This document shows positions 2,377 through 52,943 of a stretch of 64,000 nt of DNA, in pieces; within the stretch, counting starts at the first letter, position 1; every line of letters starts with the position of its first letter. Origin of the DNA: Candidatus Doudnabacteria bacterium (GTDB taxonomy: Bacteria; Patescibacteriota; Doudnabacteria; UBA920; O2-02-FULL-48-8); the NCBI GenBank assembly GCA_016199215.1, contig JACQHB010000006.1, forward strand, positions 3,642 through 67,641. The letters run 5' to 3'. The translations under genes were made by a program, and so were the position numbers. The notes under the pieces are model-generated. The model was not told the origin of the DNA. It saw only the letters and a program-made list of their open reading frames with translations, and made no database searches.

Positions 2377-3861
2377 CTAATTGCTCTGGACTGACCGCGC
2401 GACTCGATGCAGATGATCCCAATATATCACGTTTTTGACCACGACTGGAAAAGCTCTAAGGTTACCAGAGGTCTTGATCAGGAGCTTCCAATAGCGCCAA
2501 TTGGCCCCAGACCAGATCCCGATAAACCAAAGGCTCTTCACCACCGCGAGCAGCTCGTTCCACGATAAGTGAGTGCTTCGCGTTTTGGGCCGGTAGTTCT
2601 TGATCAGCGTCTCAATCCTTGCGAAATAACTCTTGGCGGAAAACAGCGCCAAAAGCAGTTCGCGGTGGCCCTTGACCAGCTTCTCAAGCCCCATTGTCGG
2701 TAAGAAATTTACCTGACCCGACGTGTTGTCGCCGTTTGCTTCAAGCAACAACCGTCCTTCCGCGCGCAGTCTATGCCACAGCCTGGTCCCGGGAATTGCC
2801 ATAACTATCCCGACCATTGCCATAGGCACGCCAATTGCCTGGATGAACTCAAACTGGTCGCGGAAGATGGTTTCGGCTTTGTCATTGTCGAAACCGACCA
2901 TGAACCCGCCCATCACATGCAACCCGCGCCGCTGAATCTTGATCACCGCCTCTCGCAGATCGCGGCTCGTGTTCTGGGTCTTGCCGGCTTCCTTCAGGCT
3001 GTCCATACATGGGGTCTCCAGTCCGAGGAAAACGTCGCCGAAGTTGGCAAGGCTCATAAGTCCCAATAGTTCGTCATCATCCGCCAGATTCACGCTGGCT
3101 TCGGTGAAAAACTTGAATGGGTATCGATGGCGCTTCTGCCATGCGACCAGCTCAACCAACATCTGCTTGACAGCGCGCTTGTTGCCAATGAAGTTGTCAT
3201 CAACAACAAACACCGCTCCCCGATAGCCCAAGTCGAACAGCAACTGCAGCTCTGCCATCATCTGGCGAGGAGTTTTGACGCGCGGCACGCGGCCGTTCAT
3301 GACCGTGATGTCGCAGAACTCGCAGTCATACGGACAACCGCGAGAATACTGCACGAGCATGGTGGCGTAGTCCTTCAACCGGATCAGCGCCCACATTGGA
3401 AGCGGCGTTGCGGTAATATCCGGCCGAAGGCCAGACGAATACTTATGCTTCGCGCTTCCGCTTGCCAAATCTTCCAAAAACAGCGGTAGCGTTACTTCTG
3501 CCTCGCCCAGGACCAAGTGGTCAACTTCGGGAAACTTTTCCGGCTCAGCGTTGAACAGCGGACCTCCGGCAACGACCGTTTTACCGAAAGCCTTACAGCG
3601 TTCAATTACAGCGAGAGCTGACGACTTCTGCACAATCATGGCGCTTACAAACACCATATCCGCCCACGCAAGCTGGCTATCGGTAATCGGCGCGACGTTC
3701 TCGTCGGCAAGCTTCTTGGCCCACTCCGTGGGCAATATCGAAGCGATCGTGAGCAAGCCCAGGGGTGGAAAAGCCGCCTTCCTCGATATATATCTCAGCG
3801 CGCCGCTGAAACTCCAAAATGTCGTCGTCGGGTATTTGGGGTATATCAAAAGAACATTCAT
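2377..3861 (-). CDS. B12-binding-domain radical SAM protein
   Basis: 494 aa with radical SAM CxxxCxxC (RGCPYDCEFC) preceded by an N-terminal Rossmann-like B12-binding segment. SD is GAGGAGG, 7 nt before the ATG. Visibly GC-richer than neighbours. Confidence 0.85.
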   Translation of the reverse strand: MNVLLIYPKYPTTTFWSFSGALRYISRKAAFPPLGLLTIASILPTEWAKKLADENVAPITDSQLAWADMVFVSAMIVQKSSALAVIERCKAFGKTVVAGGPLFNAEPEKFPEVDHLVLGEAEVTLPLFLEDLASGSAKHKYSSGLRPDITATPLPMWALIRLKDYATMLVQYSRGCPYDCEFCDITVMNGRVPRVKTPRQMMAELQLLFDLGYRGAVFVVDDNFIGNKRAVKQMLVELVAWQKRHRYPFKFFTEASVNLADDDELLGLMSLANFGDVFLGLETPCMDSLKEAGKTQNTSRDLREAVIKIQRRGLHVMGGFMVGFDNDKAETIFRDQFEFIQAIGVPMAMVGIVMAIPGTRLWHRLRAEGRLLLEANGDNTSGQVNFLPTMGLEKLVKGHRELLLALFSAKSYFARIETLIKNYRPKTRSTHLSWNELLAVVKSLWFIGIWSGANWRYWKLLIKTSGNLRAFPVVVKNVIYWDHLHRVARSVQSN

Positions 3862-3971
3862 CTGATTCTCCTCCTCTTTGTTCTCTCCAGTTCTTTTACT
3901 TTATACTCCCGTTTTCCTCTTGTCTAGAAAAAACAGCCTTTTTACGGCTGACTTAAATTAATAACTTATTC

Positions 3972-3999
3972 TTATTCGCTTATTCGTACGAATTAGACC
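3972..3999 (-). repeat. junction repeat copy A (TTATTCGCTTATTCGTACGAATTAGACC on plus strand)
   Basis: Lies between the TspO stop and the hairpin terminator (3934-3956) preceding the radical SAM gene. Core palindrome is ATTCGTACGAAT. The same word recurs at 4609-4629 and 4746-4758. Confidence 0.85.
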
Positions 4000-4013
4000 A
4001 GGTATTAATTCGA

Positions 4014-4556
4014 TTAGCGATTGAGAATCCAAACAGAATAATTCAAATACGCGGCAAAAGTGACCCAAAAAATGTATGGAATCAAAAGTGCGGCTGAAAC
4101 TTTAGATACGCGGTAAAAGTTGATGATTGTGTAAAGTATCGCAAACCAGAGCGCGACGAGTTCAAAAAAAGCCAGACCAATTTGGTGGCGGCCAAAAAAT
4201 ATGTATGACCAGAGCGCGTTCAGGACCAATTGAATGACAAAGATCGCAATCAGGTTTTGCTTCTGCCAATCCCCTGTCCAAAGTTTTCCGGACCATTTAT
4301 TCCAGGCTTTCTTTTTGGGAACCAAAAACTTATTCCTTACTTTCCATTTATTCTTCCAAACGAGGAAAATCGAAATACCCATAAGGATGTAAAGTGCTGT
4401 CCAAACAGGACCAAAAAGCCAAGCAGGAGGATTAAGACTAGGTTTGGTAAGAGCGACATACCAGCCAGGGATGGCTTCTGCTGTATACAAACTTCCTACC
4501 GCGCCAACGGACAGGCAGATAAGCACAAACAGAACCAAAATTAGTATTTGTTTCAT
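4014..4556 (-). CDS. tspO: TspO/MBR family tryptophan-rich sensory protein
   Basis: 180 aa, multi-TM and Trp-rich. The WYVALTKPSLNPPAWLFGPVWTALYILMG signature is characteristic of TspO. Confidence 0.85.
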   Translation of the reverse strand: MKQILILVLFVLICLSVGAVGSLYTAEAIPGWYVALTKPSLNPPAWLFGPVWTALYILMGISIFLVWKNKWKVRNKFLVPKKKAWNKWSGKLWTGDWQKQNLIAIFVIQLVLNALWSYIFFGRHQIGLAFFELVALWFAILYTIINFYRVSKVSAALLIPYIFWVTFAAYLNYSVWILNR

Positions 4557-4608
4557 ATAGTTTCGTCTTCATTTCATTTTATCACAAGCTAAACAAGGAC
4601 CAAAGTGC

Positions 4609-4629
4609 TTATTCGCTTATTCGTACGAA
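4609..4629 (-). repeat. junction repeat copy B1 (left half through the palindrome: TTATTCGCTTATTCGTACGAA)
   Basis: Identical to the first 21 nt of copy A. It stops inside the TTCGTACGAA palindrome, where the arsR fragment begins. Confidence 0.8.
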
Positions 4630-4748
4630 GTCGAACGAAAAGATAACCTGATCTCTTCAGCGATATTGCCAACTGATGCTCCCCTTTTTTGCTTAAGCAC
4701 TTTGATAATCGCAAGCCTTCTTCGATTTGCTAAAGCTTTCAAAGTTAC
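4617..4748 (-). pseudogene. truncated arsR-family paralogue (43 codons, no start, premature stop inside the repeat)
   Basis: My minus-strand translation is VTLKALANRRRLAIIKVLKQKRGASVGNIAEEIRLSFRSTSYE*. It matches residues ~8-49 of the intact ArsR at 5787-6047 at about 28 of 42 positions. It lacks the N-terminus and the whole C-terminal half. Confidence 0.7.
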
Positions 4749-4758
4749 GAATTAGACC
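4746..4758 (-). repeat. junction repeat copy B2 (right half: TACGAATTAGACC)
   Basis: Identical to the last 13 nt of copy A. B1 and B2 share the hexamer TACGAA, so the arsR fragment sits inside a split repeat. Confidence 0.75.
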
Positions 4759-4770
4759 TTGAGCAAAGCC

Positions 4771-5067
4771 TTACCAAATCTGGTAAATCTCGCGCCTTCC
4801 GGTCATGTACATATCAGTATAGTGCTCCCACTGCTTGGCGACTTCCGGATCCACGTCCTGATCCATCTTGCCGGATTTGTAGTCTTCCATCATTTTGTCG
4901 AAATCAGCAAGACTGTCCATCTCGCTTTCTACAACGACAGTATTGTAATTACCGGTCAGGTCTGTCATAACCCTGCTTTTCCCCTTCATAAACGAGCCCT
5001 TCATTATCTTGGCAAACTTGGACGCCATGCCAGGCTTGCAAGTAAATATCTCACGAACTATTATCAT
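4771..5067 (-). CDS. small hypothetical protein (98 aa), possibly dimeric alpha/beta-barrel-like
   Basis: Intact ORF with SD TAGGAGG 4 nt upstream. No motif that I can name with confidence. Confidence 0.5.
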   Translation of the reverse strand: MIIVREIFTCKPGMASKFAKIMKGSFMKGKSRVMTDLTGNYNTVVVESEMDSLADFDKMMEDYKSGKMDQDVDPEVAKQWEHYTDMYMTGRREIYQIW

Positions 5068-5207
5068 AAACCTCCTAAGATTGTTTAATTAGACTAATCT
5101 TAAGAAGTAAAAAAAATTAACTCAATTGTAAACAAAAACGAAAGAGCTTCCACTGTTTTGATTTGACTGAAAACGACGTTTCGTCAACGGCGGGTTTGGA
5201 TTAAATT

Positions 5208-5762
5208 CTATAAAACTCCAAAACTTATCAGTTTACTTTTCAAAGAATCAAAATCTTTCCAAACGATCCCTTGCATTCCCACCTCTTCAGCTCCTTTTAC
5301 ATTCTGCTGGGTATCATCAATAAAAATGCATCCCTGAGGAGAAACTTGAAGTTTTTGGCAGGCAAGATGATATATATTTGGCGCCGGCTTCTCAAGCTTC
5401 ACTTCTGACGAGTTTATAAAGATTTCGAAAAATTGCGAAAAAGGATATTGCTTTTTGAAGTAAGGAATAGTAATGCTCGTGCCGTTATTAACTACGGCTA
5501 ACTTATACTTCTGTCCAAGCCCAGGCAGGAGCTCTTGCCAGACTTCCTCCACCTGGCAAAATTTCCCCGTAACTCTTTCGGCGATTTCTTGAACACTAAA
5601 ATTTTTAGTGATTTCATTTTGCTTCAGAGCATGAATGAAGTCATATGGATCCAGGATCCTATCACTTAACTCTTCCGCGATTTGGATTACTTCGTCAAAC
5701 TTATAATTTGGCCGTTTCTTAAGCAATGGCCCGACCATGTCAAAAATTATTGCCTTAATCAT
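5208..5762 (-). CDS. HAD-superfamily hydrolase-like protein
   Basis: N-terminal IIFDMVGPLL (HAD motif I with the second Asp replaced by Val) and C-terminal IFIDDTQQNVKGAEEVGM (motif IV). Confidence 0.7.
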   Translation of the reverse strand: MIKAIIFDMVGPLLKKRPNYKFDEVIQIAEELSDRILDPYDFIHALKQNEITKNFSVQEIAERVTGKFCQVEEVWQELLPGLGQKYKLAVVNNGTSITIPYFKKQYPFSQFFEIFINSSEVKLEKPAPNIYHLACQKLQVSPQGCIFIDDTQQNVKGAEEVGMQGIVWKDFDSLKSKLISFGVL

Positions 5763-5772
5763 AAACTACTCT

Positions 5773-5793
5773 CCTATTCGCGCGAATTAGAGA
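5773..5793 (-). repeat. junction repeat copy C (CCTATTCGCGCGAATTAGAGA)
   Basis: Contains the ArsR stop codon (minus-strand CTC TAA) and ends 10 nt before the HAD ATG. Core palindrome is ATTCGCGCGAAT. Confidence 0.85.
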
Positions 5794-6047
5794 TCGCTGA
5801 GAAGTGATTTCACAAACTGGGGTAGGTCTAATGCTAAGTAATAAAAAACAACCAGACTCCTTTGCTCTTTATCAAGCAAGTTTGCCCTGGCCAGAATATT
5901 CAGATGCTTGGAGGTTGCCTTAAACGACAATCTGATCTGTCCCGCAATTTCGCCCACCGAGGCTTCTTTCCGAGTCCTCAGAAATTTAATAATCGCCAAG
6001 CGCCGCCGGTTAGCCAAAGCCTTCAAAATTATTTCCTGCTGTTTCAT
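5787..6047 (-). CDS. ArsR/SmtB-family winged-helix transcriptional regulator
   Basis: 86 aa. LKALANRRRLAIIKFL...SVGEIAGQIRLSFKATSKHLNILARANLL is the classic ArsR HTH. TATAAT (6054-6059, minus) ends 6 nt before the ATG. Confidence 0.85.
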   Translation of the reverse strand: MKQQEIILKALANRRRLAIIKFLRTRKEASVGEIAGQIRLSFKATSKHLNILARANLLDKEQRSLVVFYYLALDLPQFVKSLLSDL

Positions 6048-6062
6048 AAAACCATTATACTA

Positions 6063-6096
6063 TTATTCGCCTATTCGCGCGAATTAGAGAAGGTTA
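6063..6096 (-). repeat. junction repeat copy D (TTATTCGCCTATTCGCGCGAATTAGAGAAGGTTA)
   Basis: 34 nt, 33/34 identical to copy E. It contains the HIT stop codon (minus-strand AAC CTT CTC TAA) and is followed directly by the arsR -10 box. Confidence 0.9.
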
Positions 6097-6542
6097 TGCT
6101 TTTTGATTTTATCGGCAAGTTGATTTAGCTCTTCAAGATTTTTTTGAGGACCAAGTTGCGTGGAAATATATCCTTCGTATTTCTCAAAATACACTTTCTC
6201 TTTCGCCCAAATTTCTTCGAATTTCTCATCGATCCCATATAAAGGATAAAGCTTTATATGGGCATGATTAATCCCCATCCCCTCCATGACCATAGACACT
6301 CGTTTTACGTTCAATCCTTTTTCTAACAAACCAGCAACTTTTCTAGCGGCTAAAAATGAATCCGTATAATCCTGATCAGAGAAATCAAACATGTACGAAT
6401 CAAAGTGTTTTTTGGTCAAAACCAAAGTCATTCCCTCGACATTTGGGTTAATATCAAGGATAGCCAAGAAATTTTCATCTTCCCAGATCTTTGCGGAATC
6501 AATCTCCCCACTGACAATTTTGCAAAATATACAGTCTTTCAT
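6084..6542 (-). CDS. HIT-family nucleotide hydrolase/transferase
   Basis: 152 aa with N-terminal CIFCKI and the histidine triad INHAHIKLYP. Confidence 0.85.
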   Translation of the reverse strand: MKDCIFCKIVSGEIDSAKIWEDENFLAILDINPNVEGMTLVLTKKHFDSYMFDFSDQDYTDSFLAARKVAGLLEKGLNVKRVSMVMEGMGINHAHIKLYPLYGIDEKFEEIWAKEKVYFEKYEGYISTQLGPQKNLEELNQLADKIKKHNLL

Positions 6543-6802
6543 AATTTTACTACAGGAGTTAATGCTTTTATAAGTTTTAATTTCTCAACTCGGGATAATT
6601 GCTTGATTCGGTATTCGGCCTTGGAAGCACTGGACCTGTTGCGGAATCTTTGGGTGAAAACCAACTTCACCGGCCTTCGGGCCTGCGTATATCTTGCTCC
6701 CAGCTTGGAAAGATTATGCTCCGAGACCCTGCGAGGCAAATCCGTCGTGATCCCAGTATAAAGCGTCTTATCCGAGCATTTGAGGATATAAAGATGGTAC
6801 AT
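6539..6802 (-). CDS. GIY-YIG nuclease-domain protein (UPF0213-like)
   Basis: 87 aa. YHLYILKCSDKTLYTGITTDLPRRVSEHN is the GIY-YIG signature. It overlaps the HIT start by 4 nt. Confidence 0.85.
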   Translation of the reverse strand: MYHLYILKCSDKTLYTGITTDLPRRVSEHNLSKLGARYTQARRPVKLVFTQRFRNRSSASKAEYRIKQLSRVEKLKLIKALTPVVKL

Positions 6803-6803
6803 G

Positions 6804-6837
6804 TTATTCGCCTATTCGAGCGAATTAGAGAAGGTTA
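6804..6837 (-). repeat. junction repeat copy E (TTATTCGCCTATTCGAGCGAATTAGAGAAGGTTA)
   Basis: Abuts the GIY-YIG ATG. It retains the minus-strand AACCTTCTCTAA that forms the last codons of the HIT gene at copy D, although no ORF precedes it here. Confidence 0.9.
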
Positions 6838-6838
6838 A

Positions 6839-6943
6839 CGGCTCATTGAGGGGTTTCGTTGAGCCGTTGGACAGGCATTATTTCCCGTTCACTGGATTCC
6901 CGATCGGGTCGGGAATGACAGAAGAATATGCTTTAATAATGCC
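6839..6943. other. non-coding segment with nested hairpins at the end of the repeat array
   Basis: Three pairings are visible: CGGCTCA(6839-6845)/TGAGCCG(6860-6866); GGCATTAT(6874-6881)/ATAATGCC(6936-6943), which encloses TTCCCGA(6897-6903)/TCGGGAA(6909-6915). No ORF. Confidence 0.4.
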
Positions 6944-7080
6944 ACAGGAAAGGGAAAAAGTAAAAATAGGGGGCAGGGTTGAGGGTGAAGGGACATGATT
7001 CTTTATATTAGGATTATTTTGGGTTATACTAAAAGCACCATCAGTCACCACTTCTCGTTACTCGTTTCAGGAGGATTGTC

Positions 7081-7294
7081 ATGCCTCGTTTCAAGGTCAA
7101 GGACGGCCAGTTCGTGAAGTCCAGCTACAGTCACCCGGGCGGCATCGTCACCAGATGTGTGTCGGTGGCCATCACCCGCAAGGGAGTCGCGGTCCGCGAC
7201 ACGAAGGACCCGTCCAAGAAGGACCCAATGGTACACGCGTGCCGAGTGGGATGCCTTCATCAAGGGCGTGAAGAACGGCGAGTTCGATCTCTGA
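7081..7294 (+). pseudogene. DUF397-domain gene with a frameshift
   Basis: Frame 1 gives MPRFKVKDGQFVKSSYSHPGG..CVSVA..KGVAVRDTKDPSKKDP. The +1 frame from 7232 gives YTRAEWDAFIKGVKNGEFDL* (stop at 7292-7294). Together they form a complete DUF397 pattern. The frame break lies around 7222-7232. GC-rich, with SD CAGGAGG. Confidence 0.6.
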
Positions 7295-7307
7295 GACGGA
7301 CCGCGGT

Positions 7308-7350
7308 GAGCACCAGGGCGGCATTCTGCCGTCCCTGGTGCTCATTTTAT
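7308..7350. terminator. hairpin terminator between the DUF397 gene and tfoX-like gene
   Basis: GAGCACCAGGG(7308-7318)/CCCTGGTGCTC(7333-7343), followed by ATTTTAT. Confidence 0.7.
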
Positions 7351-7355
7351 ATGTT

Positions 7356-7658
7356 TTAATAAATTACCGCTAACGAAAGCCTTGCCCACTCTTTTAGCTT
7401 TACTAAATCATCAATGATCTCCGGGGGGACTTCGTAATAGTTTTTTAAAATCTGCTTTGGGCTTGGGGCGAAGGGTTTACTGCCAAAGGCTTCGTAATCC
7501 TTTCTTGTTTGCTCGTTTGTTTTGAAAAACAGCTGGTCTTGGTAGATTATCGCAAAAAACTTTCCGTCCAAATATAAGCCGTAGGCGTCGAACATGCGGC
7601 GGCCCTTGATGTTAAGACTTGAAAGTTGCTCAAGAATGTAAGACTCAAAAGAAGACAT
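7356..7658 (-). CDS. TfoX N-terminal-domain protein
   Basis: 100 aa. The RRMFDAYGLYLDGKFFAIIYQDQLFFKT pattern is typical of TfoX_N. Confidence 0.65.
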   Translation of the reverse strand: MSSFESYILEQLSSLNIKGRRMFDAYGLYLDGKFFAIIYQDQLFFKTNEQTRKDYEAFGSKPFAPSPKQILKNYYEVPPEIIDDLVKLKEWARLSLAVIY

Positions 7659-7689: not shown

Positions 7690-7962
7690 CTAAGAAATAG
7701 ATACTTCCAGTTCGGCATCAAGCGCACGAGCAATTCTTTGTAAAAATTTAAGCGAGGGATTATAAGCCCCGCTCTCTAATCTTGAAATCAGGGGTTGTTT
7801 GGTTCCAATTTTCTTAGCCAACTCTTTCTGGGTCAATCCCTTTTTAAGGCGTCTTTCAATAACCATTTCTATAACGGCAAATTCAGGCTCGAGTTCTTTG
7901 TACGCCTTTTTAACAGCCTTGTTCTTAAGCAGTCGTGTTTTAAAACCTTTGTAATCCTTCAT
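7690..7962 (-). CDS. XRE-family HTH protein, HigA-like antitoxin
   Basis: 90 aa. GLTQKELAKKIGTKQPLISRLESG is an HTH_3 motif. It lies directly downstream of the decayed toxin gene. Confidence 0.8.
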   Translation of the reverse strand: MKDYKGFKTRLLKNKAVKKAYKELEPEFAVIEMVIERRLKKGLTQKELAKKIGTKQPLISRLESGAYNPSLKFLQRIARALDAELEVSIS

Positions 7963-17366: not shown

Positions 17367-19910
17367 CTAAAAAGTTCTTTCAGTACTAATTGGCCCAGTA
17401 ACAGCCGGCGCTCCGAGTCTGGTGCGATCCAAAATCTCCCGCTCAACATCTTTTTTCGGCCTGCCAAATTTGAGCCTGGACAAATTGCGCACGATCCCTG
17501 CCAGTTCCAAACTGCCCCCGGGAGGCTTGGGATAAGTCTGCATATTAAACGGCCTCGAGGCTGTTCCTTTCACCATAAGCTTCACATAAGCGTTGTACCG
17601 CTCGATATTCACCAAATCAAATTCATTAAACACCGGAGCAAATTCTTTGGCCATGATTTCGGCATCCTCAACACCGATCCGGAAGCAGATCATACTGCCG
17701 GCATTGCCGAATACCGCGTCGCGCATCCTTGAGTCCATTGCCGAACTGCCTTCTTTTTCCACGCTTAGCTGGGACAAAAACTGGTGGGCCATGATCAGGT
17801 TTAGCCGGTACTTTCTTGCCTCGGACAAAATCGTGGCAAAACTGTCAGTGACAAAATTCTGGAACTCATCCACATACAGGTAGAAGTCGCGGCGGTTTTC
17901 TTCCGGAATGTCGGAGCGGGACAAAGCCGCCATCTGAAGTTTGGAGACTATAATCAGGCCAAGCAGCTTGGCATTGACCTCGCCGGTTTTTCCTTTTGAC
18001 AAATTGATCAGCAGGATTTTGCCCTGATCCATCACCTCCCTGAAATCAAACGAACTTGTCGGCTGGCCGATAATGTTTCTCATCATTTCGTTTTCCACAA
18101 ACCTGCCGACTTTGGAAATCAGGTACCCCAGCATTTCAGATTTGTGAAAGTCCGAAGTTTTGGCCATTTCTTTTTCCCAAAACGAGCGGACAATCGGATC
18201 TTTGACCTTGGACAGCTTGTATTTCTGAAAATCCGTGTCAGTGAACATCCTCGGGATGTCCGCGATCGTGCCGGGATACTGTTTGTCTTCCATCAGTGTA
18301 AGCATGACATTGCGCATATTATGCTCAAACATAGGCCCGATCATTTCCGGCGGAAACAGCTTGTAGAAAATCGCGATCATTTCCTGGATCGCAAAATCTT
18401 TTTGTTCCGGACCCTTGACCTGGAGCATATTTAATCCAACCGGCCGCTCGGTGTCAAACGGCTCAAACAAAATCACGTCGTCGGCCCGCTCTTTGGGAAT
18501 GTATTGCAGAACATCTTCCACAAAATCGCCGTGCGGATCCACGATGCATAACCCTTCGCCGTTGCGGATATCCTGAATCGCCATGTTTTTCATAAGTTCC
18601 GTTTTGCCAGTGCCCGTGCGCCCGATGATGTATTTGTGCCTTCTCCTGTCATCCGCCTGAATGAAAATTTTGGTCTCAACCCCTCGGTAAACGCTTCGAC
18701 CCAATAGCATGCCGGAGTCCGGCAGGGTTGGGGGCGGAGCCGCTTTTTTCGCGTGCAACCATTTAATATTCGGAGTTTCGGTAAATTTGGTCGGCGGATG
18801 CCAGATGCTTGAAAGCTCTTCGGTGTTCAAAATCGCGGAAGTGTTGCGGAAAACCCGAAAAATGTAATCAACGATAATCTTATTAGTTTTCCGTTTAATC
18901 ACGCGCAGGCCGTTGAACGGGGGCATGGAGTACTGCATAAACGACGCCATGATGCTGCGAATATTGGTGTCGGCCGCTTCCTGCGAAGTGCTTGAAGTTA
19001 CAACGCGCAAATTGAATTTGTACCCGGGCCGTGACGCTTTTTCCTCAAACCTCTTTACCATCTCCTGCTGCATGGGAGTTAAGTGTATGGGTTTATACAT
19101 CCCGGAGGGATCGTAGTGCCCCGGCTGCATTTGAGGTTTGTTTTTTTCAAAAAACAATTCGTTGAACGCCATGCCGGTCCACTTGAACAACCCGTTGAAA
19201 AATTTTTCAAGCGGTGATGCCGTTACGAGCCCGGGATTACGGCCCTGCTGGATTTCAAGCGCGTATCTTCTGGGCTTGCTTTGCCAGCCTACTTGAGCCG
19301 GACTGATCAGAAGCTGAATTGCCGCCCCTTCGCCTTGGCCAAGCTTGGAAAGGCTGTTGGTTAAGGAGTTGATCGGATCCGACTCCATATTTTTGTAAGT
19401 GCGCAAGGGAAAAACATATTTTTTTTGCAAAGTTAATTCAGCCGCGGCCACAAAAGATTCGGAAGTAAAAATATTATAAGGCTTCACCTGGTCGATCTGG
19501 GCTTTGGGATATTGCGCGTGAAGCTGTTTTTCGACCAAAGATTGCAGTCTTTTCGGCACATTCAGAAAAAAAGAAATTTTCTTGCCGACCGCGCCCATTT
19601 CCAGGCTTATATAATCATTGATCCCAAAAATGGACTTGACGTTATAATCCTGGGACGCCTGCATGATAGTGGCAAAAAACTGTTCGGCGATGCCAATCAT
19701 TTCTTTTTCCTGTTTTTGCGGATCCTTTTCCGCGTCCGCGTTTTCTTTGGGCACGGAAACTTCCAAAAAAACAGAATCCAGAATTCTGGGGCCCCAGCTC
19801 TTCTTTCTCAGATTTTCCGAAATCAGGAAATACAAAAGCAATCCTGTCAGCCCTAAAATGGCTATTAGGATCAGCCAAAAAACTACAAATGTTCCGTTTA
19901 ACAAGTCCAC
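17367..19910 (-). CDS. membrane-anchored P-loop ATPase, VirD4/TraD coupling-protein-like or HerA-like
   Basis: 847 aa with an N-terminal TM (VVFWLILIAILGLTGLLLYFLI). Walker A is IIGRTGTGKT, followed by CIVDPHGDF. Walker B-like FYLYVDEFQNF. Also ARKYRLNLIMAHQFLSQL. Confidence 0.7.
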   Translation of the reverse strand: MDLLNGTFVVFWLILIAILGLTGLLLYFLISENLRKKSWGPRILDSVFLEVSVPKENADAEKDPQKQEKEMIGIAEQFFATIMQASQDYNVKSIFGINDYISLEMGAVGKKISFFLNVPKRLQSLVEKQLHAQYPKAQIDQVKPYNIFTSESFVAAAELTLQKKYVFPLRTYKNMESDPINSLTNSLSKLGQGEGAAIQLLISPAQVGWQSKPRRYALEIQQGRNPGLVTASPLEKFFNGLFKWTGMAFNELFFEKNKPQMQPGHYDPSGMYKPIHLTPMQQEMVKRFEEKASRPGYKFNLRVVTSSTSQEAADTNIRSIMASFMQYSMPPFNGLRVIKRKTNKIIVDYIFRVFRNTSAILNTEELSSIWHPPTKFTETPNIKWLHAKKAAPPPTLPDSGMLLGRSVYRGVETKIFIQADDRRRHKYIIGRTGTGKTELMKNMAIQDIRNGEGLCIVDPHGDFVEDVLQYIPKERADDVILFEPFDTERPVGLNMLQVKGPEQKDFAIQEMIAIFYKLFPPEMIGPMFEHNMRNVMLTLMEDKQYPGTIADIPRMFTDTDFQKYKLSKVKDPIVRSFWEKEMAKTSDFHKSEMLGYLISKVGRFVENEMMRNIIGQPTSSFDFREVMDQGKILLINLSKGKTGEVNAKLLGLIIVSKLQMAALSRSDIPEENRRDFYLYVDEFQNFVTDSFATILSEARKYRLNLIMAHQFLSQLSVEKEGSSAMDSRMRDAVFGNAGSMICFRIGVEDAEIMAKEFAPVFNEFDLVNIERYNAYVKLMVKGTASRPFNMQTYPKPPGGSLELAGIVRNLSRLKFGRPKKDVEREILDRTRLGAPAVTGPISTERTF

Positions 19911-19932
19911 TTTTGTTTTAGATAATGTTTTA

Positions 19933-20053
19933 CCATTTCGAGCGCGAAGCGCGAGAAATCTCGGTGTTAACTTATTTGATTATATAAATCTTGCCATGAT
20001 GTAAACATAAAACATAGTTTAAACACCGGGATCTCTCACTTCGTTCGAGATGG
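19933..20053. repeat. imperfect ~32-36-bp inverted repeats flanking a 53-bp AT-rich spacer
   Basis: CCATTTCGAGCGCGAAGCGCGAGAAATCTCGGTGTT (19933-19968) pairs with the reverse complement of 20022-20053 (CCATCTCGAACGAAGTGAGAGATCCCGGTGTT). Confidence 0.55.
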
Positions 20054-20068
20054 AATAAATAGTGTTCT

Positions 20069-20443
20069 TTAGGCTGATTTTTTTTGTTCTTCTGTTTCGT
20101 CTCCTTCAACATTTGAACCCAAAAAGTCCACAGCATTGCTATAGTCATCACCCAATTGAGCCATTACTTCGTCCAAGCTTCGGCCCTGCTGCAAAAACAA
20201 ATTAGCCTTGTTACGAACCGCTCTGTCCGTAAGCTTTTCTGCTTCGGCTTTTTTGGCCGGTTGATTAAGCCGCTCCTTAATATCAGGAAAATTCACAACT
20301 TCACTTGGAATTTCTGGTTTAACATCGGGCGCGCGAAAACCAGGCGCTGTCTTCTCTTTTTCTGACAGCACTTCCCCGGCCTGTTCCCGGGCTTGTTCCT
20401 GCTGGGCCAATCTGGCTCTTTGTTCTTCAGTCAATTCTTGCAT
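20069..20443 (-). CDS. hypothetical acidic protein (124 aa)
   Basis: Intact ORF of low complexity (Q/E/A-rich). Confidence 0.45.
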   Translation of the reverse strand: MQELTEEQRARLAQQEQAREQAGEVLSEKEKTAPGFRAPDVKPEIPSEVVNFPDIKERLNQPAKKAEAEKLTDRAVRNKANLFLQQGRSLDEVMAQLGDDYSNAVDFLGSNVEGDETEEQKKSA

Positions 20444-20486
20444 AACGGATGATTATATATTAATTCCCGGGTCCGGTCAAGGATAA

Positions 20487-20801
20487 TTATTCTTTAAGGA
20501 TATCTTGGACTCTTCCTGCCAATTCCCGCTTAATTTTAAGCACTTCCTCACCAATCCAATCCGGGAAGCTGGGGGCGTTCCTCTGCATGAACTCCTGGAT
20601 CCTTTGTTGGTTCTGTTCTGTGAGCAGGTTTTCGAACTGTTTTCCTTGCTCTTCTGAAAGCGATTCCATCAGGCGCAGAGTCAGGCGTTTCTGCGCGAGA
20701 TCGACAATTTTCTCGACTATCAAAATTTTCTGCTCATCAGGCAAAGATTCGATCCCTAAAAGCTTAATTATATTTTCCTGCGCACCTTGCGGTAAATTCA
20801 T
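20487..20801 (-). CDS. small helical protein, DUF5663-like
   Basis: 104 aa. LPDEQKILIVEKIVDLAQKRLTLRLMESLSEEQ resembles the DUF5663 family as I recall it. Confidence 0.45.
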   Translation of the reverse strand: MNLPQGAQENIIKLLGIESLPDEQKILIVEKIVDLAQKRLTLRLMESLSEEQGKQFENLLTEQNQQRIQEFMQRNAPSFPDWIGEEVLKIKRELAGRVQDILKE

Positions 20802-20812
20802 ATTGCGATTAA

Positions 20813-23296
20813 TTAATTCTCAAATTTGCGCTTCAGCGCGATTTTTGTGATTATAGCGTGCATCTTATCCGAATTATTAAACTCAACCCCGGCCCGCAAC
20901 TGTGAAAAACTTTTCCCGAATTCGGAATATTTCTCGCCGAATGACCCAGGCGCTTTGAGTCTTCCTGAAAACTGGTCAAATGTCAGATCTTTTATTTTAT
21001 TCAGGCTTCGAGCGGACAAATGCAAGTTTTTTTCCAAAAACTCTTTATAGCCATCGCCAAGGATAACATGGAGGGCTTCAGAAGTGTTAATTTTCGCTCC
21101 AACCATTGCAAAATCCCTTGCCTTTTCTATTGTAAGCGCTTCGTGCGCGGCTTTCAGAGCTTCAGTTGATTTCGGCCCAATCGCCTCAACTGGATGTAAA
21201 TACCCCCTTATCGGACGGGTCTTTAATGGATCTTCAGTTACGTCCAAGATATCCTGAATATCTTGTTGTGGATTCTCTGGAGGAAAATCTACAGCAGAAG
21301 GCGGCTTTGTTTCTTGGACAATATCGCTGGTCTTTGAAGCGACAGTCGCGCTCTCATTTAAAGTTTCATGAGGTGGAATAAATTTGACAGGATTTATTTC
21401 CAATTGCCCGTCCGCGGCAATATGAATCTTCGCCCCCAGGATTTCGTTCAGGTCTTTTGTATTGCCTCCGACAGTAAACCCGCGCTCCTTCGCATAATCC
21501 AAAACATATTTATGAACCAGCCCTGAATCGTCGCCGCTGTAACCCGGGTATTCTGATTTTAATTTCGCAATCATCTTTGCGTATATTTGGGGGTCTGTTT
21601 CCTTTAGATCAAGGACGGCTCCCTCTATCCCACGCCTGCCAGCCGAAAGCATTGCCTCTCCCTTTGCGGTTGTTTCCAAGGTTGCCCCAGTCGCCTTCCC
21701 ATGGTGCATGATTTCCGCGTTCTTCGGAGTCTCTACAGCCTTTGGAGATACTTCTTGCCCGACAGCCGGATGATCAGCAAGCCCTGTGGTTTTTGGCGCT
21801 GCCTGCTCAAACGGCTTGTACCCTTCGGTCAAATCAGCATTCTGCTGATAAACAAGTGGTTTAAGAGGCTTGAGAGGTGCCTGTTCTGCCATAATCGGGC
21901 CAGGCATATTCGTTTCGGGGACAGAAGGTGCTGAAGGAAGCTCTTTATCGCTTAAATTGATATCCGAAGTATGCATAATCCCGCGAGGCGGCCGCATATC
22001 TTTTGGAATTGCCGTCTTATTGCCAAACAATTCCGCAAGCAGGCCAGATCCTACAATAGTGCCAACACCAATACCAACAAAATTGGCTATCCCCCTGTTA
22101 ACCCGTTCGTTATATTTGCCGTTCTTTAGTAAAGATTCCGCGCGCTGAGTTTCTTCTGCTAAATACTGGTCAACCATTTTTTGGAATTCTCCTGGTTTTT
22201 CTCTGGTTAAAACTGAAATCTCCAAGGATCTCAACATCTCATAAAGCTGCTCCAGTCTTGGATCATTAGCTCTGTATTCTAAGGGTTCATCGTGTAATTC
22301 TTCGCGGACAGCTTCTATCTGATCCCAAATGGAATTATATCTTGCTTTATCCTGCTCATTCAAACTTGAATAAACTCCTTGGCTTTGATCAACCGATAGA
22401 CTTAATTTTACGCTTTTCTTTAATTCTTTTTGTTTCCTCACTAATTCCAAATATAATTGGTCCTTTTCAAGATCAGCTCCAGAAAGTCCATCAAGGGCGG
22501 CTCTGGCATAAAAATCGCTAACCAATCTATCCACCTGTTCGGCAAATTGGGCGTTGTCCAAACGTTTCTTCAAAGTATTTCTGTCCATTTTATTCAAACC
22601 AGCAAGCAGTAGCTCTCTTGAACCAACTCCGCTGCCAATTCCTGATAATAACCTTCTCCCTACAATCGCTCCCCAGCCGATTGCTGATCCTGCGCCAAAT
22701 CCAACTGCTACCCCCAATAAACCGGCGCTTACCGCTGTCCTCACGTTTATCATTCTCAGCGCTCCCCGTTTAAAGCGGCCTTCAACTCTTACTCCGTGTT
22801 CTTCCAGCTTGCTAAGTAAATTGTAATTGCCCAGTCCCTTATACCAATCCAAGGCTCTCTTGCCAACGCTCCGGTCCCCCTTGGTCAATTCAAGCCGTGC
22901 CAAGACAAGCTTATGAGTTTCGGCATCAAGCCGACCAATATCATGCGAAACATATTCAGCCAAAGCTTTTTTATATTCATCTTCCGCCTCGGTGTGCGCT
23001 GTGGCAACAGTATCTTTTGAGGAACGCGATAAAAATTCTTTAAGCCTGCCCTTAATTCCTTGGGTAGCTTCTAAATCTTTTTTTGCTTTTATAAAATCAA
23101 TCCGCAGCTCGTCCAAAGACTTTGCCGACGCTGATGCTTCCGGCGCAATTTCTTCAATCCGCGCTTCAGCCGGCATATCAACCCTTGGAGACTCATCCGC
23201 CACCGCGGAAGGACCCTCTTCAGGAGGTTTGGCCTGTCCATCTAGACGCGCTTGCGCCGCTCTTAATTTGTCTCTTAACCGTTCGGCGTTTCCCAT
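20813..23296 (-). CDS. large uncharacterised membrane-associated protein (827 aa)
   Basis: Long intact ORF with two glycine-zipper-like hydrophobic stretches (AGLLGVAVGFGAGSAIGWGAIVG and NFVGIGVGTIVGSGLLAELFG). Confidence 0.6.
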   Translation of the reverse strand: MGNAERLRDKLRAAQARLDGQAKPPEEGPSAVADESPRVDMPAEARIEEIAPEASASAKSLDELRIDFIKAKKDLEATQGIKGRLKEFLSRSSKDTVATAHTEAEDEYKKALAEYVSHDIGRLDAETHKLVLARLELTKGDRSVGKRALDWYKGLGNYNLLSKLEEHGVRVEGRFKRGALRMINVRTAVSAGLLGVAVGFGAGSAIGWGAIVGRRLLSGIGSGVGSRELLLAGLNKMDRNTLKKRLDNAQFAEQVDRLVSDFYARAALDGLSGADLEKDQLYLELVRKQKELKKSVKLSLSVDQSQGVYSSLNEQDKARYNSIWDQIEAVREELHDEPLEYRANDPRLEQLYEMLRSLEISVLTREKPGEFQKMVDQYLAEETQRAESLLKNGKYNERVNRGIANFVGIGVGTIVGSGLLAELFGNKTAIPKDMRPPRGIMHTSDINLSDKELPSAPSVPETNMPGPIMAEQAPLKPLKPLVYQQNADLTEGYKPFEQAAPKTTGLADHPAVGQEVSPKAVETPKNAEIMHHGKATGATLETTAKGEAMLSAGRRGIEGAVLDLKETDPQIYAKMIAKLKSEYPGYSGDDSGLVHKYVLDYAKERGFTVGGNTKDLNEILGAKIHIAADGQLEINPVKFIPPHETLNESATVASKTSDIVQETKPPSAVDFPPENPQQDIQDILDVTEDPLKTRPIRGYLHPVEAIGPKSTEALKAAHEALTIEKARDFAMVGAKINTSEALHVILGDGYKEFLEKNLHLSARSLNKIKDLTFDQFSGRLKAPGSFGEKYSEFGKSFSQLRAGVEFNNSDKMHAIITKIALKRKFEN

Positions 23297-25734
23297 TATT
23301 CTTTGATTAATTCTAAGTTGCCTTCCCTTATCCTAATGGAAGAAAGTTTGCCGTAAGATGATTCAAAAAATCTTTTTACTTCCAGTGGCAGTCTTGTCAG
23401 AGCATTTTTTATTCTTCCTTGCGCCAAAAAACTGGCTCTTGATTGAATATGGCTGAAGTCCAGATTATTTTCATTATTCCGGATTTCGCCCTGCAATTTA
23501 ATCTTAAATCCGGAATAAACGAACTGGGCGTCAACTGAAGCCTTGTCTTTGCTGGAAGTCAGTTCAAAATTTTCAATCCTCGCAGCGCCTCCAATCCCGG
23601 CCATAATCAACCTTTTCAACTCATCCATTGGAACAATTATTTTCTTTTCCAGACTTTTTTCAAGAAAATCTTTCAGGACTTCTGCGGGGTTGTCAACATT
23701 AAAAGCAACCATGCCATCCGAATATATCAAATCCGCGTTATTTGGCTGGAAATATTTTCCCCTCAATTTTTCCGGCGGAAACTGGGGCAGGACTTGCTCC
23801 AGGAGTTTTGCGCCTTTTTCGTTATCCGACGCGGAACTTCGTGGCGCCTCAATTATCTTGATCCCGTAACTATGTTCAAGTTGCGCAAATATTCCCCTTG
23901 CCCGCTCCCAAGCAGCCGGGCCGGCCTCTTCTTTCGCTTCTACCAAATCAAGCCCGAGATCTTCATATGCGGAACCGAGGACTTGCCGCAATTTGTCCTC
24001 TGGCACTCTTTCGATTAATCTTCGCTTAAGCTGTCTAATCTGGGCTTCGGCATCTTTCAAAGATTCAATCTGTCTGCCAGCAACAGATTCTTTGTAAACA
24101 TCAGAGTCTCCCCGGATTAGGGCGGCAAACCTTGGCCCAAACACTTCCTGGATTGCTTCAATGCTCACGCCGAATTCTTTTGCCAATTCTGCACCCCAAT
24201 TTTTAATTTCAGCTTCAACCGCTCTTCGTTGAGTTTCCTCCTCCCCCGACCCCAAAAGCTCTTTTTCTTTGTTGGCATATTCAATGGAAAGAATTATATA
24301 TCTTGTCGCAAGTTGTAGATTTTTAAGCTGGTCTTCGTATTTTTGAGCGAAATGAAAAATTGCCAGCCTTGTTTGGGCAAAGTCTTCTGGGCTTTTTGAG
24401 CTTTCAAGAATTTCTTTAAGTTTTTCTATATCTTCAAATGCCCTTTCCAGTGCCCTTTCCAGCCTTCCATCAGTTTTCTCGACTGGAGCCGTTTCAGCTT
24501 GCACCCTTGGAACGTCAGGGGCAATTTCCCTCCTCTTTCTGATCAAATCCCTGACGTTTTCATATTCCGCGCCCAAAAACATTTCTTGTTCGGTTTTTGG
24601 ATCAGTAATTGAGCCGAAATCCCTTTCTGCTCTTTCTTTCCAGGACTCGATCAATGCATGGATTTGCTCTAGTTGCTTCTTATTCGCGTTTTTGATCAAA
24701 AACTCCAGTTCCCTCAGCTCACCTATCAGGAGTTCTTCTTTTTGCCGCTTATCTGTTTTATCGTTTTTAACCCAAACCAAGCTTTCTTGGGCGGCAACAG
24801 GGGCAGGTCTTTTGTCTCCTAATTTTTGAGTTTTATTTTCGCCTAGCCACCGGCGATTCGCTGCCGCTATTTTTTCCTCACCCTCTTCCTCCTCCGATAG
24901 TTCTTCTGGCTCAGGATGTTTTGAAGCTCTTTCTTGAGCTTTTTCAGCGGCTTGTTTTACAGCATTTTCAAATTCCTTCTGAAATCTTTTTGCTTTTTTT
25001 TCCGCAAGCGGCGCATTAACTTTCGTTTCATAATGCCGACGGTATGTTTCGAGCTCTTTTATCATGTCCTCCAAGTATTTCCTTCGATCCTCGCTTAACC
25101 CTGCGGCAACTCCATTTTTCCGGCCAGTGTCAGAAAGCCTTTCTCTAAACGCGCTAATAAGGCTGTTGATCGCGTAAAGCCTCTCACGGTCGGAAATTTT
25201 ATTTGTATCCGCCCTGATCTTGTCCCATAATTTTTTTATTTGTTCATTATAGCCAATCCCTTCAGGCTTCTTGGCTTCAACCGCAAGAGGCTGGATTGCT
25301 TCCATGTTTCTAACTGGTTCTAGGACATCTTCCCGTTCAAAAGCATCTTGTGTCCGAACCTGGTCTTTTTTAAACCTCTGGTTAACTCTTTCTTTCAGTT
25401 GCTTAAGATTTAAAGCCTTGAGCTTTTGGAATTCCTCCTCGTCAAAAAAGCCTCGGGCTGAAGAAAGAAGGGCTAGTTTCTCTCGCTCAGTTTCGGCTTT
25501 TGTTTTCCGCAATTTTTTTGCTTTTGGTTCTGTCTGCGCAACATCTGGGGCTTGCTGTGCTTCTGCGAGTTTTTCCGCTGGTTCTTCAACTTGGGATACT
25601 GGGGCGATAACCTGAGGATCAGAAGATTCAGGCTCGCTATGATGTCGCTTTTCATTTGGCAATCCATTGGCAAAAACAGACTTTAACTGGCTTGCCAGGC
25701 TTTCGTTGAACGGTTTGTCATTGTTTCTGCTCAT
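23296..25734 (-). CDS. large uncharacterised, highly charged coiled-coil-like protein (812 aa)
   Basis: Long intact E/K/R/A-rich ORF. It shares nucleotide 23296 with the start of the downstream 827-aa ORF. Confidence 0.6.
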   Translation of the reverse strand: MSRNNDKPFNESLASQLKSVFANGLPNEKRHHSEPESSDPQVIAPVSQVEEPAEKLAEAQQAPDVAQTEPKAKKLRKTKAETEREKLALLSSARGFFDEEEFQKLKALNLKQLKERVNQRFKKDQVRTQDAFEREDVLEPVRNMEAIQPLAVEAKKPEGIGYNEQIKKLWDKIRADTNKISDRERLYAINSLISAFRERLSDTGRKNGVAAGLSEDRRKYLEDMIKELETYRRHYETKVNAPLAEKKAKRFQKEFENAVKQAAEKAQERASKHPEPEELSEEEEGEEKIAAANRRWLGENKTQKLGDKRPAPVAAQESLVWVKNDKTDKRQKEELLIGELRELEFLIKNANKKQLEQIHALIESWKERAERDFGSITDPKTEQEMFLGAEYENVRDLIRKRREIAPDVPRVQAETAPVEKTDGRLERALERAFEDIEKLKEILESSKSPEDFAQTRLAIFHFAQKYEDQLKNLQLATRYIILSIEYANKEKELLGSGEEETQRRAVEAEIKNWGAELAKEFGVSIEAIQEVFGPRFAALIRGDSDVYKESVAGRQIESLKDAEAQIRQLKRRLIERVPEDKLRQVLGSAYEDLGLDLVEAKEEAGPAAWERARGIFAQLEHSYGIKIIEAPRSSASDNEKGAKLLEQVLPQFPPEKLRGKYFQPNNADLIYSDGMVAFNVDNPAEVLKDFLEKSLEKKIIVPMDELKRLIMAGIGGAARIENFELTSSKDKASVDAQFVYSGFKIKLQGEIRNNENNLDFSHIQSRASFLAQGRIKNALTRLPLEVKRFFESSYGKLSSIRIREGNLELIKE

Positions 25735-49910: not shown

Positions 49911-49929
49911 TTTGCTCTTTACACTCTTT

Positions 49930-51622: not shown

Positions 51623-51639
51623 ATTCTATTTCCTATTCC

Positions 51640-52242: not shown

Positions 52243-52263
52243 ATTGTTCGAACGAAGCGAGAA

Positions 52264-52818: not shown

Positions 52819-52840
52819 AATTTCTTTTTCCGCGAGGCAC

Positions 52841-52933: not shown

Positions 52934-52943
52934 CGGTGCCGAG

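Follow-up and report, generated by a model that had tools for sequence, protein, structure and literature searches.

A palindromic repeat that brackets an ArsR-family gene in Doudnabacteria and across Patescibacteria, probably the operator of an autoregulated repressor

What is the role of a short palindromic repeat that recurs, always in the same orientation, between small neighbouring genes of unrelated function? The question is raised by a 64,000-nt stretch of the genome of a Candidatus Doudnabacteria bacterium (GenBank assembly GCA_016199215.1, contig JACQHB010000006.1, positions 3,642 to 67,641 of the forward strand; hereafter the window, to which all plain positions refer), in which four full copies and one split copy of such a repeat (A to E) were found on the minus strand between 3972 and 6837, around a gene for an ArsR/SmtB-type regulator (arsR). 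The original prediction, made from the sequence of the window, had read this block mainly as a mobile array of gene cassettes organised like an integron or a CALIN (cluster of attC sites lacking integron-integrases), and had offered as an alternative a portable module of stop codon, operator and promoter, the operators being those of the encoded ArsR. The alternative is now strongly supported by the bracketing of arsR genes in loci chosen by their protein (76 of 81 upstream and 73 of 80 downstream) and by palindromes that are specific to its paralogs. Sequence comparison indicates that the repeats are very probably operators of a Patescibacteria-wide autoregulated ArsR-family repressor, whose own gene is bracketed by two of them and whose additional targets vary with lineage.

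The element was found at all five junctions at which it had been predicted. Within it, TAATTCGNNCGAATA is exact in copies A, C, D and E (3981-3995, 5775-5789, 6072-6086 and 6813-6827) and has two mismatches at 4618-4632, at B1, one part of copy B. When up to two mismatches were allowed, nine matches occurred in the 64-kb window, compared with 2.3 expected from shuffles, and the right-hand part, CGAATARGCGAATAA, had four matches, all of them inside the block, compared with 0.35 expected. No copy was detected in the remaining 61 kb, so the repeat is not a generic intergenic word of this genome and is not spread over most intergenic regions of the window. A repeat of the REP/BIME kind (repetitive extragenic palindrome/bacterial interspersed mosaic element) or a terminator word was rejected on the same ground, and none of the terminator-like sites coincides with a copy. 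The core ATTCG-NN-CGAAT, which had been described as common to all copies, was confirmed, but the real element extends further: in its complete form it is an imperfect inverted repeat of ~30 bp, TTATTCTC-TAATTCG-NN-CGAATA-GG-CGAATAA. Each arm contains two GAAT-type half-sites (four in all), and the inner 12-bp palindrome (the core) is almost invariant. The copies in the window are 28-34 nt long. Copies D and E are identical at 33 of 34 positions, on which the repeat-family comparison and the original prediction agree, and B2 is identical to copy A at 13 of 13 nt, the variant GGTC/TA/AAG being common to A, B2 and B1. The reported likeness of A and B therefore stands, but B is not simply a split copy: between its parts lie 116 nt of an arsR gene (arsR'), with TTCGTA at both joints, 71% DNA identity to the intact arsR (at 5980-6031) and a slightly higher identity, 75.7%, to the arsR of another locus (L055). 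This fragment is the remains of a second regulator module. A putative decayed trace of the repeat, GTCTAATT, belongs to a class of 8-mers that occurs in the window at chance frequency and is by itself not distinguishable from chance, although all three occurrences in the window fall in the repeat block and on one strand. As for the hairpin that the core was expected to form, single-stranded copies barely fold (minimum free energy -4.4 to -7.7 kcal/mol, z = -0.1 to -2.3, either strand), and no Rfam family matched between 3000 and 9000 at E <= 1.

In the direction of transcription the block is ordered E-(GIY-YIG, HIT)-D-arsR-C-(HAD, 98-aa gene)-B2/arsR'/B1-TspO-A. The stop codons of arsR and of the HIT gene (open reading frames, ORFs, 5787-6047 and 6084-6542) are the TAA that opens the element, copy D is followed by a TATAAT that ends 6 nt before the arsR ATG (CGAATAA-TAG-TATAAT-GGTTTT-ATG), and a single nucleotide separates copy E from the ATG of the GIY-YIG gene, all as first described. 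The regulator gene thus has one copy in front of it (D, here O1) and one at its end (C, here O2).

This arrangement is not confined to the window. In a motif scan covering one genome per species (pattern TAATTCGNNCGAATARGCGAATAA), the 24-mer TAATTCG-NN-CGAATARGCGAATAA was found in 54 stretches of other genomes, almost all of which are metagenome-assembled genomes (MAGs) of Patescibacteria, or Candidate Phyla Radiation (CPR), from many classes (Saccharibacteria, Paceibacterota, Doudna-, Berkel-, Kaiser-, Nomura- and Harrisonbacteria, and others); the remaining stretches are labelled 'bacterium' only, or, in two cases, Gammaproteobacteria. The latter two (L033 and L049) are short contigs, one of which (L033) also contains an arsR homolog, and both are probably mis-binned CPR contigs. 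The flanks of the motif are unrelated and its borders sharp, conservation reaching no further than 5-8 nt on the left side (ttCTC) and 3-4 nt on the right. Different central dinucleotides occur (CG, TA, CT, TG, AG), and fully symmetric versions occur in some lineages, such as TATTGTCTTATTCG-CG-CGAATTAGACAATA in L067. An adjoining ArsR homolog (50-65% identity, 86-93 aa; tblastn with the window proteins) is encoded in 30 of the 54 stretches, and in these one copy lies 25-60 nt upstream of the arsR ATG and one at or just after the stop codon, the last arsR codons (..ISLL and stop) overlapping the left arm of the downstream copy. An unbiased set was provided by 80 metagenome loci chosen by protein alone, with a peptide pattern, S[FV]K[AS]TSKHL, that matched 576 relatives. 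In these loci an exact core ATTCG-NN-CGAAT was present no more than 100 nt upstream of arsR in 76 of 81 cases, as a dyad-symmetric site over the -35/-10 region, and a core overlapped the stop codon or lay within ~70 nt after it in 73 of 80. All sequence gathered contained 298 cores in 792 kb, compared with 0.76 expected. The motif is strictly linked to this ArsR clade and keeps a fixed position relative to its promoter and stop codon. Viral contigs gave no match even to a looser pattern, and there is thus no sign of carriage by phages.

The paralogs of this regulator serve as natural controls of specificity, as they are bracketed by palindromes of their own. In L041, a paralog with an altered recognition helix, SFKATSNHL, lies between two copies of another palindrome of 30 bp, CATTGTACAATTCCATAGAATTGTACAATG (L041:3787-4147), one upstream, before the gene's own TATAAT, and one directly after the stop codon. 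Similarly, a more distant paralog in L137 (NFKTISEHTRRL) has ATTCCAATATTCTTGAGAATGTGAGAATG on both sides (L137:6900-7275). The order palindrome-gene-palindrome is therefore a trait of the family, and the palindrome changes together with the protein, as a cognate pair of protein and DNA would predict and as is hard to explain otherwise.

The promoter geometry is also that expected of a repressor. In 72 of 89 non-redundant arsR genes, the stretch from the upstream core to the start codon contains a -10-like hexamer; in 50 of the 89 this hexamer ends 4-9 nt before the start (mode 6 nt), and a Shine-Dalgarno sequence precedes only two, suggesting that the arsR mRNA is probably leaderless and that the site covers the -35/spacer region. 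A large class of arsR genes starts as close as 14-16 nt to the core, the outer half-site, ggTAGAATa, then serving as the -10 box. Both layouts are classic positions of a repressor.

The encoded protein has the ArsR fold. The window ArsR matches PF01022 (E = 4.7e-8; 33.2 bits, cutoff 22) and PF12840 (E = 2.5e-7; 31.0 bits, cutoff 27), has a 100% identical counterpart in a Candidatus Doudnabacteria MAG, and has HlyU (E = 5e-9, 35-36% identity), NolR and CzrA as sequence matches in the PDB. Its AlphaFold2 model (mean predicted local distance difference test score, pLDDT, 93.6) is ordered alpha1-alpha2-alpha3-alphaR-beta1-beta2-alpha5, with helices at residues 3-11, 14-26, 31-38, 42-54 and 77-85 and strands at 58-63 and 66-71, and Foldseek gave template modelling (TM) scores of 0.78-0.85 to HlyU, CzrA, NolR, PagR, SmtB and CadC. 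By this model it is a canonical winged-helix protein of the ArsR/SmtB family. A homology search yielded 630 protein clusters at E <= 1e-10, all with generic names. The most conserved segment is the recognition helix, LSFKATSKHL, in which S41, T45, S46, H48 and L49 are invariant in the main clade; the invariant part of the DNA is the inner palindrome, and protein and site are thus conserved in matching places. The protein has no Cys and a single His, H48, within the invariant SKHL of the recognition helix, and therefore lacks every known metal, thiol or redox sensor site, be it an alpha3N Cys cluster, an alpha5 His/Asp/Glu site or a reactive Cys pair. Such a site defines the metal-sensing subgroup and not the ArsR/SmtB family as a whole.

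A related Doudnabacteria genome, that of L137 (ArsR 69% identical; O1 = GTTAACCTTCTCTAATTCGCGCGAATAGGAGAATAGTAGTATAATGGTATCATG, O2 = GATCTCTAATTCGCGCGAATAGGAGAATAA), indicates how the window copies are related to one another. Copy C shares its left flank, GATCTCTAATTCG, with O2 of L137/L138, while the left flank GTTAACCTTCTCTAATTCG precedes arsR in L137, where the gene upstream is DUF1905. With the same left flanks as in L137, copies D and C are the orthologous O1 and O2, and the positions of O1 and O2 are orthologous among genomes with ArsR identities of 66-69%. Copy E is 94% identical over 35 nt to O1 of L137 and shares its flank GTTAACC; from its sequence it looks like the original left border of O1, and the GIY-YIG and HIT genes sit between two copies of O1 type. 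The codons AAC CTT CTC TAA in copy E had been taken for the footprint of a former HIT neighbour, but the same flank precedes arsR in L137 beside DUF1905; AACCTTCTC is therefore the left arm of O1 in this lineage, and its interpretation as a relic of the HIT gene was rejected. A housekeeping cluster (AsnRS/AspRS-like-Ham1-SerRS-Alr) at 48783-54404 on the minus strand is syntenic with L137:10520-15710, whereas the arsR block is not: it lies 2.3 kb from the cluster in L137 and ~42 kb from it in the window, so the block has changed its place relative to the housekeeping genes.

Beyond the two copies at arsR, the site precedes other genes and often forms arrays, which commonly have 4-8 copies (eight copies within 2.1 kb in L074, six each in L075, L077 and L113, and four each in L014, L051 and L090), and 195 of the 198 copies in multi-copy loci have the same orientation. 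A co-directional ORF of at least 80 aa starts within 130 nt downstream of 152 of 205 copies, and a divergent ORF lies upstream of 39. Among the 266 ORFs that follow a copy, 110 are arsR and 156 are not, the latter belonging to 111 BLAST families and about 75 Pfam families. They include hydrolases acting on nucleotides or phosphates (HAD, NUDIX and CYTH, and also HIT), enzymes of nucleic acids (GIY-YIG, NYN, RNase H, an ExoX-like exonuclease, PIF1, MgsA), redox and stress proteins (TspO, MsrA, VKOR, glyoxalase) and others (TfoX_N, DUF2196, MazE/HicB, TrpRS, Sua5). TspO, GIY-YIG, TfoX_N, DUF2196 and MsrA recur near arsR in distant lineages; for example, TspO adjoins a copy of the motif in L008, L018, L096/L099 and L115/L117/L119, and GIY-YIG homologs with 66-71% identity do so in L021, L060, L078 and L080. 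About half of the genes after copies have a -10-like box between copy and start, and 9 of 93 have a Shine-Dalgarno sequence, suggesting that some copies belong to promoters of their own while others are internal to operons. The second situation is exemplified by copy C, in which the Shine-Dalgarno sequence of the HAD gene, GGAGAG, has taken the place of the outer half-site. In addition, a TfoX_N-domain gene is present in the window itself (7356-7658, minus strand), about 500 nt from copy E, and TfoX_N genes directly adjoin arsR and the motif in L023 and L073, a recurrent link with a domain resembling competence regulators. At L051:1126-5227, four copies each have ~50 nt of conserved upstream flank (aaataacatgagttatagaaatacgg...tttcctattctc), forming a longer repeat unit that contains the operator.

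A mechanism may be proposed for such a system. The regulator gene is bracketed by O1, which covers a -10 box situated about 6 nt before the ATG or lies immediately upstream of that box, and by O2, which overlaps the stop codon. Other copies, pointing the same way, stand before accessory genes that vary, both in the neighbourhood of arsR and at some distant sites. O1 would be occupied by ArsR dimers, probably two per site, which would block RNA polymerase and so bring about negative autoregulation; the effect would be repression and not activation. Copies in front of other genes would occlude the promoters of those genes or act as roadblocks inside operons, and O1 and O2, ~300 bp apart, may cooperate by looping. 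Several observations weigh against this interpretation or parts of it. The connection between ArsR and the site rests on co-occurrence and position, the genes after copies are very mixed, and no conserved core regulon is apparent beyond arsR. Copy A and the copies after TspO in other lineages are located at the 3' ends of genes, and copy A is followed by a terminator, which means that not every copy can be the operator of a promoter. The centres of the inner half-sites are only ~7 bp apart, which is unusual for a winged-helix dimer, and the real contacts may therefore differ from the half-sites as parsed here. The distance between O1 and O2 varies from 286 to 418 bp with no obvious preferred spacing and lends no support to looping. 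Finally, flanks of copies are 62% identical within a locus and 46% between loci, and a spread by copy-and-paste could explain such sharing as well as co-evolution with the protein does.

Other explanations of the repeat have to be weighed against these operators. In the integron- or CALIN-like interpretation, the repeats are sites of a tyrosine or serine recombinase encoded elsewhere and arsR is merely a frequent cassette. The single orientation at junctions of small unrelated genes, the homogeneity of copies within a genome, the variable central dinucleotide and the rare copies with a variable central hairpin would all agree with it; however, it is largely refuted and appears exceedingly improbable. 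The sites measure 28-34 nt and not 57-141 nt, fold weakly as single strands and lack R''/R' core pairs: as already remarked in the original prediction, no GTTRRRY/RYYYAAC cores are seen, and pairs of the form RYYYAAC...GTTRRRY were absent from either strand of 3900-7000, where 0.84 were expected. Neither a recombinase nor a transposase domain was detected in the scanned window ORFs of at least 150 aa (Pfam/NCBIfam), which encode only housekeeping products (DnaX, CysS, DnaB, RecR, SerRS, Alr, MreB/C, PBP2) and proteins without an assigned function, the setting being that of an ordinary chromosome, and no recombinase was present among 103 representatives of the gene families that follow copies. 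A gene bounded by two intact copies and present or absent between strains was not seen in about 14 informative pairs, a small sample. Recombination sites would also not be expected to show a link to one regulator clade with paralog-specific palindromes, or to be orthologous, as O1 and O2 are, in genomes with ArsR proteins 66-69% identical. A matching central dinucleotide in O1 and O2, considered as a rule of recombination compatibility, was rejected, as it holds in only 38 of 59 cases and thus indicates no pairing rule. Two further candidates were discarded: a transposon or miniature inverted-repeat transposable element, on inspection, because the copies are direct and not inverted repeats, with no transposase and no target-site duplications noted, and a Xer/dif-like site, because the centre has 2 bp and not 6 and 195 of 198 copies share one orientation instead of alternating. 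It is also very unlikely that the motif is bound by some other factor or acts in RNA, as a terminator, processing site or translation signal, and that arsR is merely linked to it. The element does give stop codons in two frames, contains a Shine-Dalgarno-like AGGAG in some copies (copy C; L060) and is transcribed at the 3' end of arsR, but its RNA and DNA hairpins are weak, without a T-run after them and without an Rfam match, whereas the dyad symmetry, the -35/-10 position and the paralog-specific palindromes argue for recognition of double-stranded DNA by the encoded dimeric protein.

A different possibility, which we consider unlikely yet worth some weight, is that the operators are also preferred points of breaking and joining, at whose edges genes are inserted, swapped and deleted, giving rise to integron-like arrays without an integrase. 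The site would be suited to this in being palindromic and the only ~30 bp conserved between divergent CPR genomes, through homologous or microhomology recombination or breakage at the centre. In the window, the pairs around TspO (B and A) and around GIY-YIG and HIT (E and D) are each other's closest variants, and arsR' occupies precisely the dyad centre of B, is flanked by TTCGTA at either end and resembles a foreign arsR more closely than the resident one. Comparisons of strain pairs at other loci revealed a VKOR gene that is present or absent starting exactly after O2 (L115 compared with L117/L119), a different gene directly after O2 together with an extra arsR module (L094 and L113), an indel of 1 kb that stops where O1 begins on its left side (L095 and L111), and homology limited to O1-arsR-O2 (L072 and L090). 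Arrays of 4-8 copies are common, and in about 6 of 300 copies the dyad centre is precisely where a GC-rich hairpin of 18-37 nt is inserted (L033, L084:690, L123:3931, L128:600, L137:7588 and L029, the last of which has lost its right arm); each hairpin has a G-rich end with CAGG or CAAG, in most cases GGCAGG (GGGCAAG in L084), before CGCGCGAAT. They could be small targeted insertions, repair filler at a fragile palindrome or terminators evolved in place, and are reminiscent of the arsR' insertion in B. On the other hand, close relatives never differed by the presence of a gene with an intact copy on each side; the far ends of indels have at most a TCTAAT remnant (left-arm remnants at two junctions); and intergenic indels beside arsR are to be expected, so that in loci centred on arsR the coincidence is partly built into the sample. 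Moreover, cargo shared between lineages has only 28-71% protein identity, which gives no indication of a recent transfer, viral contigs lack the motif, and 30 bp is short for RecA-dependent exchange. We read the cassette-like features as signs that the sites are rearrangement hot spots, combining a short conserved homology with a fragile palindrome centre, and the operators may have spread by duplication. We give a small chance to the idea that near-invariant ArsR operators double as portable gene-shuffling junctions, building arrays of conditionally repressed 'cassettes' beside arsR; if true, these junctions would be an integrase-free analogue of the integron, in which each captured gene arrives under the control of the regulator. 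The reading of the repeats as operators of an autoregulated ArsR remains the one that we favour.

The features of the block are listed in Table 1. Pfam agrees with the identities first given to the TspO, HAD, ArsR, HIT and GIY-YIG genes, and the 98-aa protein, for which no family had been named, has no Pfam match. The hairpin-rich non-coding end of the block was likewise confirmed, as the segment 6838-6950 folds at -35.9 kcal/mol (z = -3.9), with none of 200 shuffles folding as well; it has no Rfam match, is not conserved in related loci, and in part resembles the 3' end of the HIT gene plus the motif. This segment may represent either a sixth copy that has decayed or the 5' leader of GIY-YIG/HIT. 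At the other end, the hairpin and T-run between copy A and the adjoining radical-SAM gene suggest that copy A probably does not control this next gene.

Table 1. Coordinates of the repeat copies, genes and other features of the block (window positions)
Feature	Position	Strand	Remarks
Terminator-like hairpin, then T-run	3934..3950	-	Separates copy A from the radical-SAM gene
Copy A, full site GGTCTAATTCG-TA-CGAATAAGCGAATAA	3972..3999	-	14 nt past the TspO stop, upstream of the terminator-like hairpin
TspO/MBR gene	4014..4556	-	PF03073, E = 2e-47; B1 upstream, A downstream
Copy B1, dyad centre and right arm, TTCG-TA-CGAATAAGCGAATAA	4609..4629	-	Pattern matches
arsR' fragment, codons 5-45 of an ArsR paralog	4630..4745	-	In dyad centre of copy B; frame open, no ATG
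Copy B2, left arm and centre, GGTCTAATTCG-TA	4746..4758	-	13/13 identity to copy A
98-aa protein, family not assigned	4771..5067	-	No Pfam match
Possible left-arm remnant, GTCTAATT	5087..5094	-	19 nt before ATG of the 98-aa gene; weak evidence
HAD-family hydrolase	5208..5762	-	Shine-Dalgarno GGAGAG stands where copy C would have its outer right half-site
Copy C (O2 of arsR), TCTCTAATTCG-CG-CGAATAGGAGAGTAG	5766..5793	-	arsR stop TAA inside
arsR, 86-aa ArsR/SmtB-type winged-helix regulator	5787..6047	-	Pfam HTH_5/HTH_20; proposed binder of the repeats
-10 box TATAAT	6054..6059	-	Ends 6 nt before arsR ATG; leaderless-type promoter
Copy D (O1 of arsR), TAACCTTCTCTAATTCG-CG-CGAATAGGCGAATAA	6063..6096	-	HIT stop TAA inside
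GIY-YIG (6539-6802) and HIT (6084-6542), ends overlapping	6084..6802	-	Pfam
Copy E	6804..6837	-	33/34 to D; 1 nt before GIY-YIG ATG; left flank GTTAACC as in L137 O1
Structured non-coding segment upstream of E	6838..6950	-	Fold; variant palindrome ATTCCCGA-N5-TCGGGAAT

Several neighbouring genes were also recorded. The gene beside copy A (2377-3861, minus strand), encoding a B12-binding radical-SAM/DUF4070 protein, lies in DNA of ~50-52% G+C, compared with 39-42% in the repeat block. On the other side, a DUF397-domain protein (7081-7359, plus strand) is encoded near an XRE-type helix-turn-helix (HTH) protein (7690-7962, minus strand), and the DNA at about 7100-7300 seems, by eye, to have a higher G+C content than its surroundings. 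The pairing of DUF397 with an XRE-type HTH protein is typical of actinomycetes, and this pair may have been acquired horizontally. Further away, a homolog of VirD4/TraD-like coupling proteins (847 aa) and then two proteins (827 and 812 aa) without a Pfam or NCBIfam match occupy 17367-25734 on the minus strand, which may be a type-IV-secretion-like or DNA-translocation cluster.

Compared with known systems, the protein and the site are of a known kind. The SmtB, CzrA and CadC repressors have the same fold (TM 0.83-0.85) and belong to the same Pfam families, and their operators, which have a 12-2-12 inverted-repeat architecture, resemble the site described here in being imperfect inverted repeats of similar length with a 2-bp centre that overlap the regulator's own promoter. 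The system described here differs from them in the absence of metal-binding residues, the two GAAT half-sites per arm, the second operator over the regulator's own stop codon in almost all lineages, the arrays before unrelated genes and the near exactness of the site across a superphylum. The closest solved relatives, by sequence (HlyU) and by fold, are HlyU of Vibrio, PagR of Bacillus anthracis and NolR of Sinorhizobium, which are likewise small winged-helix dimers that lack metal sites at alpha3N and alpha5; PagR also has the same length (86 residues in the solved chain). HlyU is mainly an activator or anti-silencer and senses through Cys, whereas the window ArsR has no Cys, and the target DNA of the three proteins is unrelated to the present site.

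Likenesses to recombination systems are those of arrangement. Like attC sites in integrons and CALINs, the copies are imperfect palindromes in one orientation at junctions of small, diverse and mostly same-strand genes, are homogeneous within a genome and, as in CALINs, have no integrase nearby; in contrast to them, they are much shorter, have no R and L boxes, form weak hairpins, have no associated integrase and are tied to one regulator gene and to promoter positions. The pdif modules of Acinetobacter plasmids, which depend on Xer, are also small modules of unrelated genes bounded by a site of ~28 bp. pdif sites are XerC/XerD sites of 11-6-11 architecture in alternating orientation, whereas here the centre has 2 bp, the orientation is uniform and the setting chromosomal. 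The LexA (SOS) and NrdR boxes offer another parallel, in that an autoregulated repressor has its own box and a target set that changes by lineage, but the box described here is longer, far less variable and present on both sides of the regulator, and there is no conserved functional core of targets. In the literature on the motif, on ArsR in Patescibacteria/Saccharibacteria and on CPR operators or palindromes, no description of this motif or regulon was found. As far as this literature was searched, the bracket architecture, the operator with four half-sites, the lack of a known sensor site, the arrays and the near-invariance across a superphylum are new.

To our knowledge, very little is known about gene regulation in CPR bacteria, which have tiny genomes, few regulators and almost no genetics. 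The present analysis offers a concrete, testable pair of a predicted regulator and its operator in hundreds of lineages (630 clusters; 576 metagenome loci), and, as a site of ~30 bp can be searched for directly, the members of the regulon may be listed in any CPR genome. The bracket, with one operator before the promoter and one on the stop codon, is an unusual design that is also present in the paralogs, and may point to looping or to termination by a protein roadblock in these compact genomes. CPR organisms depend on scavenged nucleotides, and the lean of the cargo towards hydrolases and nucleases (NUDIX, HIT, HAD, CYTH, GIY-YIG, exonucleases), together with TspO, MsrA, VKOR and TfoX, hints at a stress or nucleotide-salvage response under the control of this regulator.

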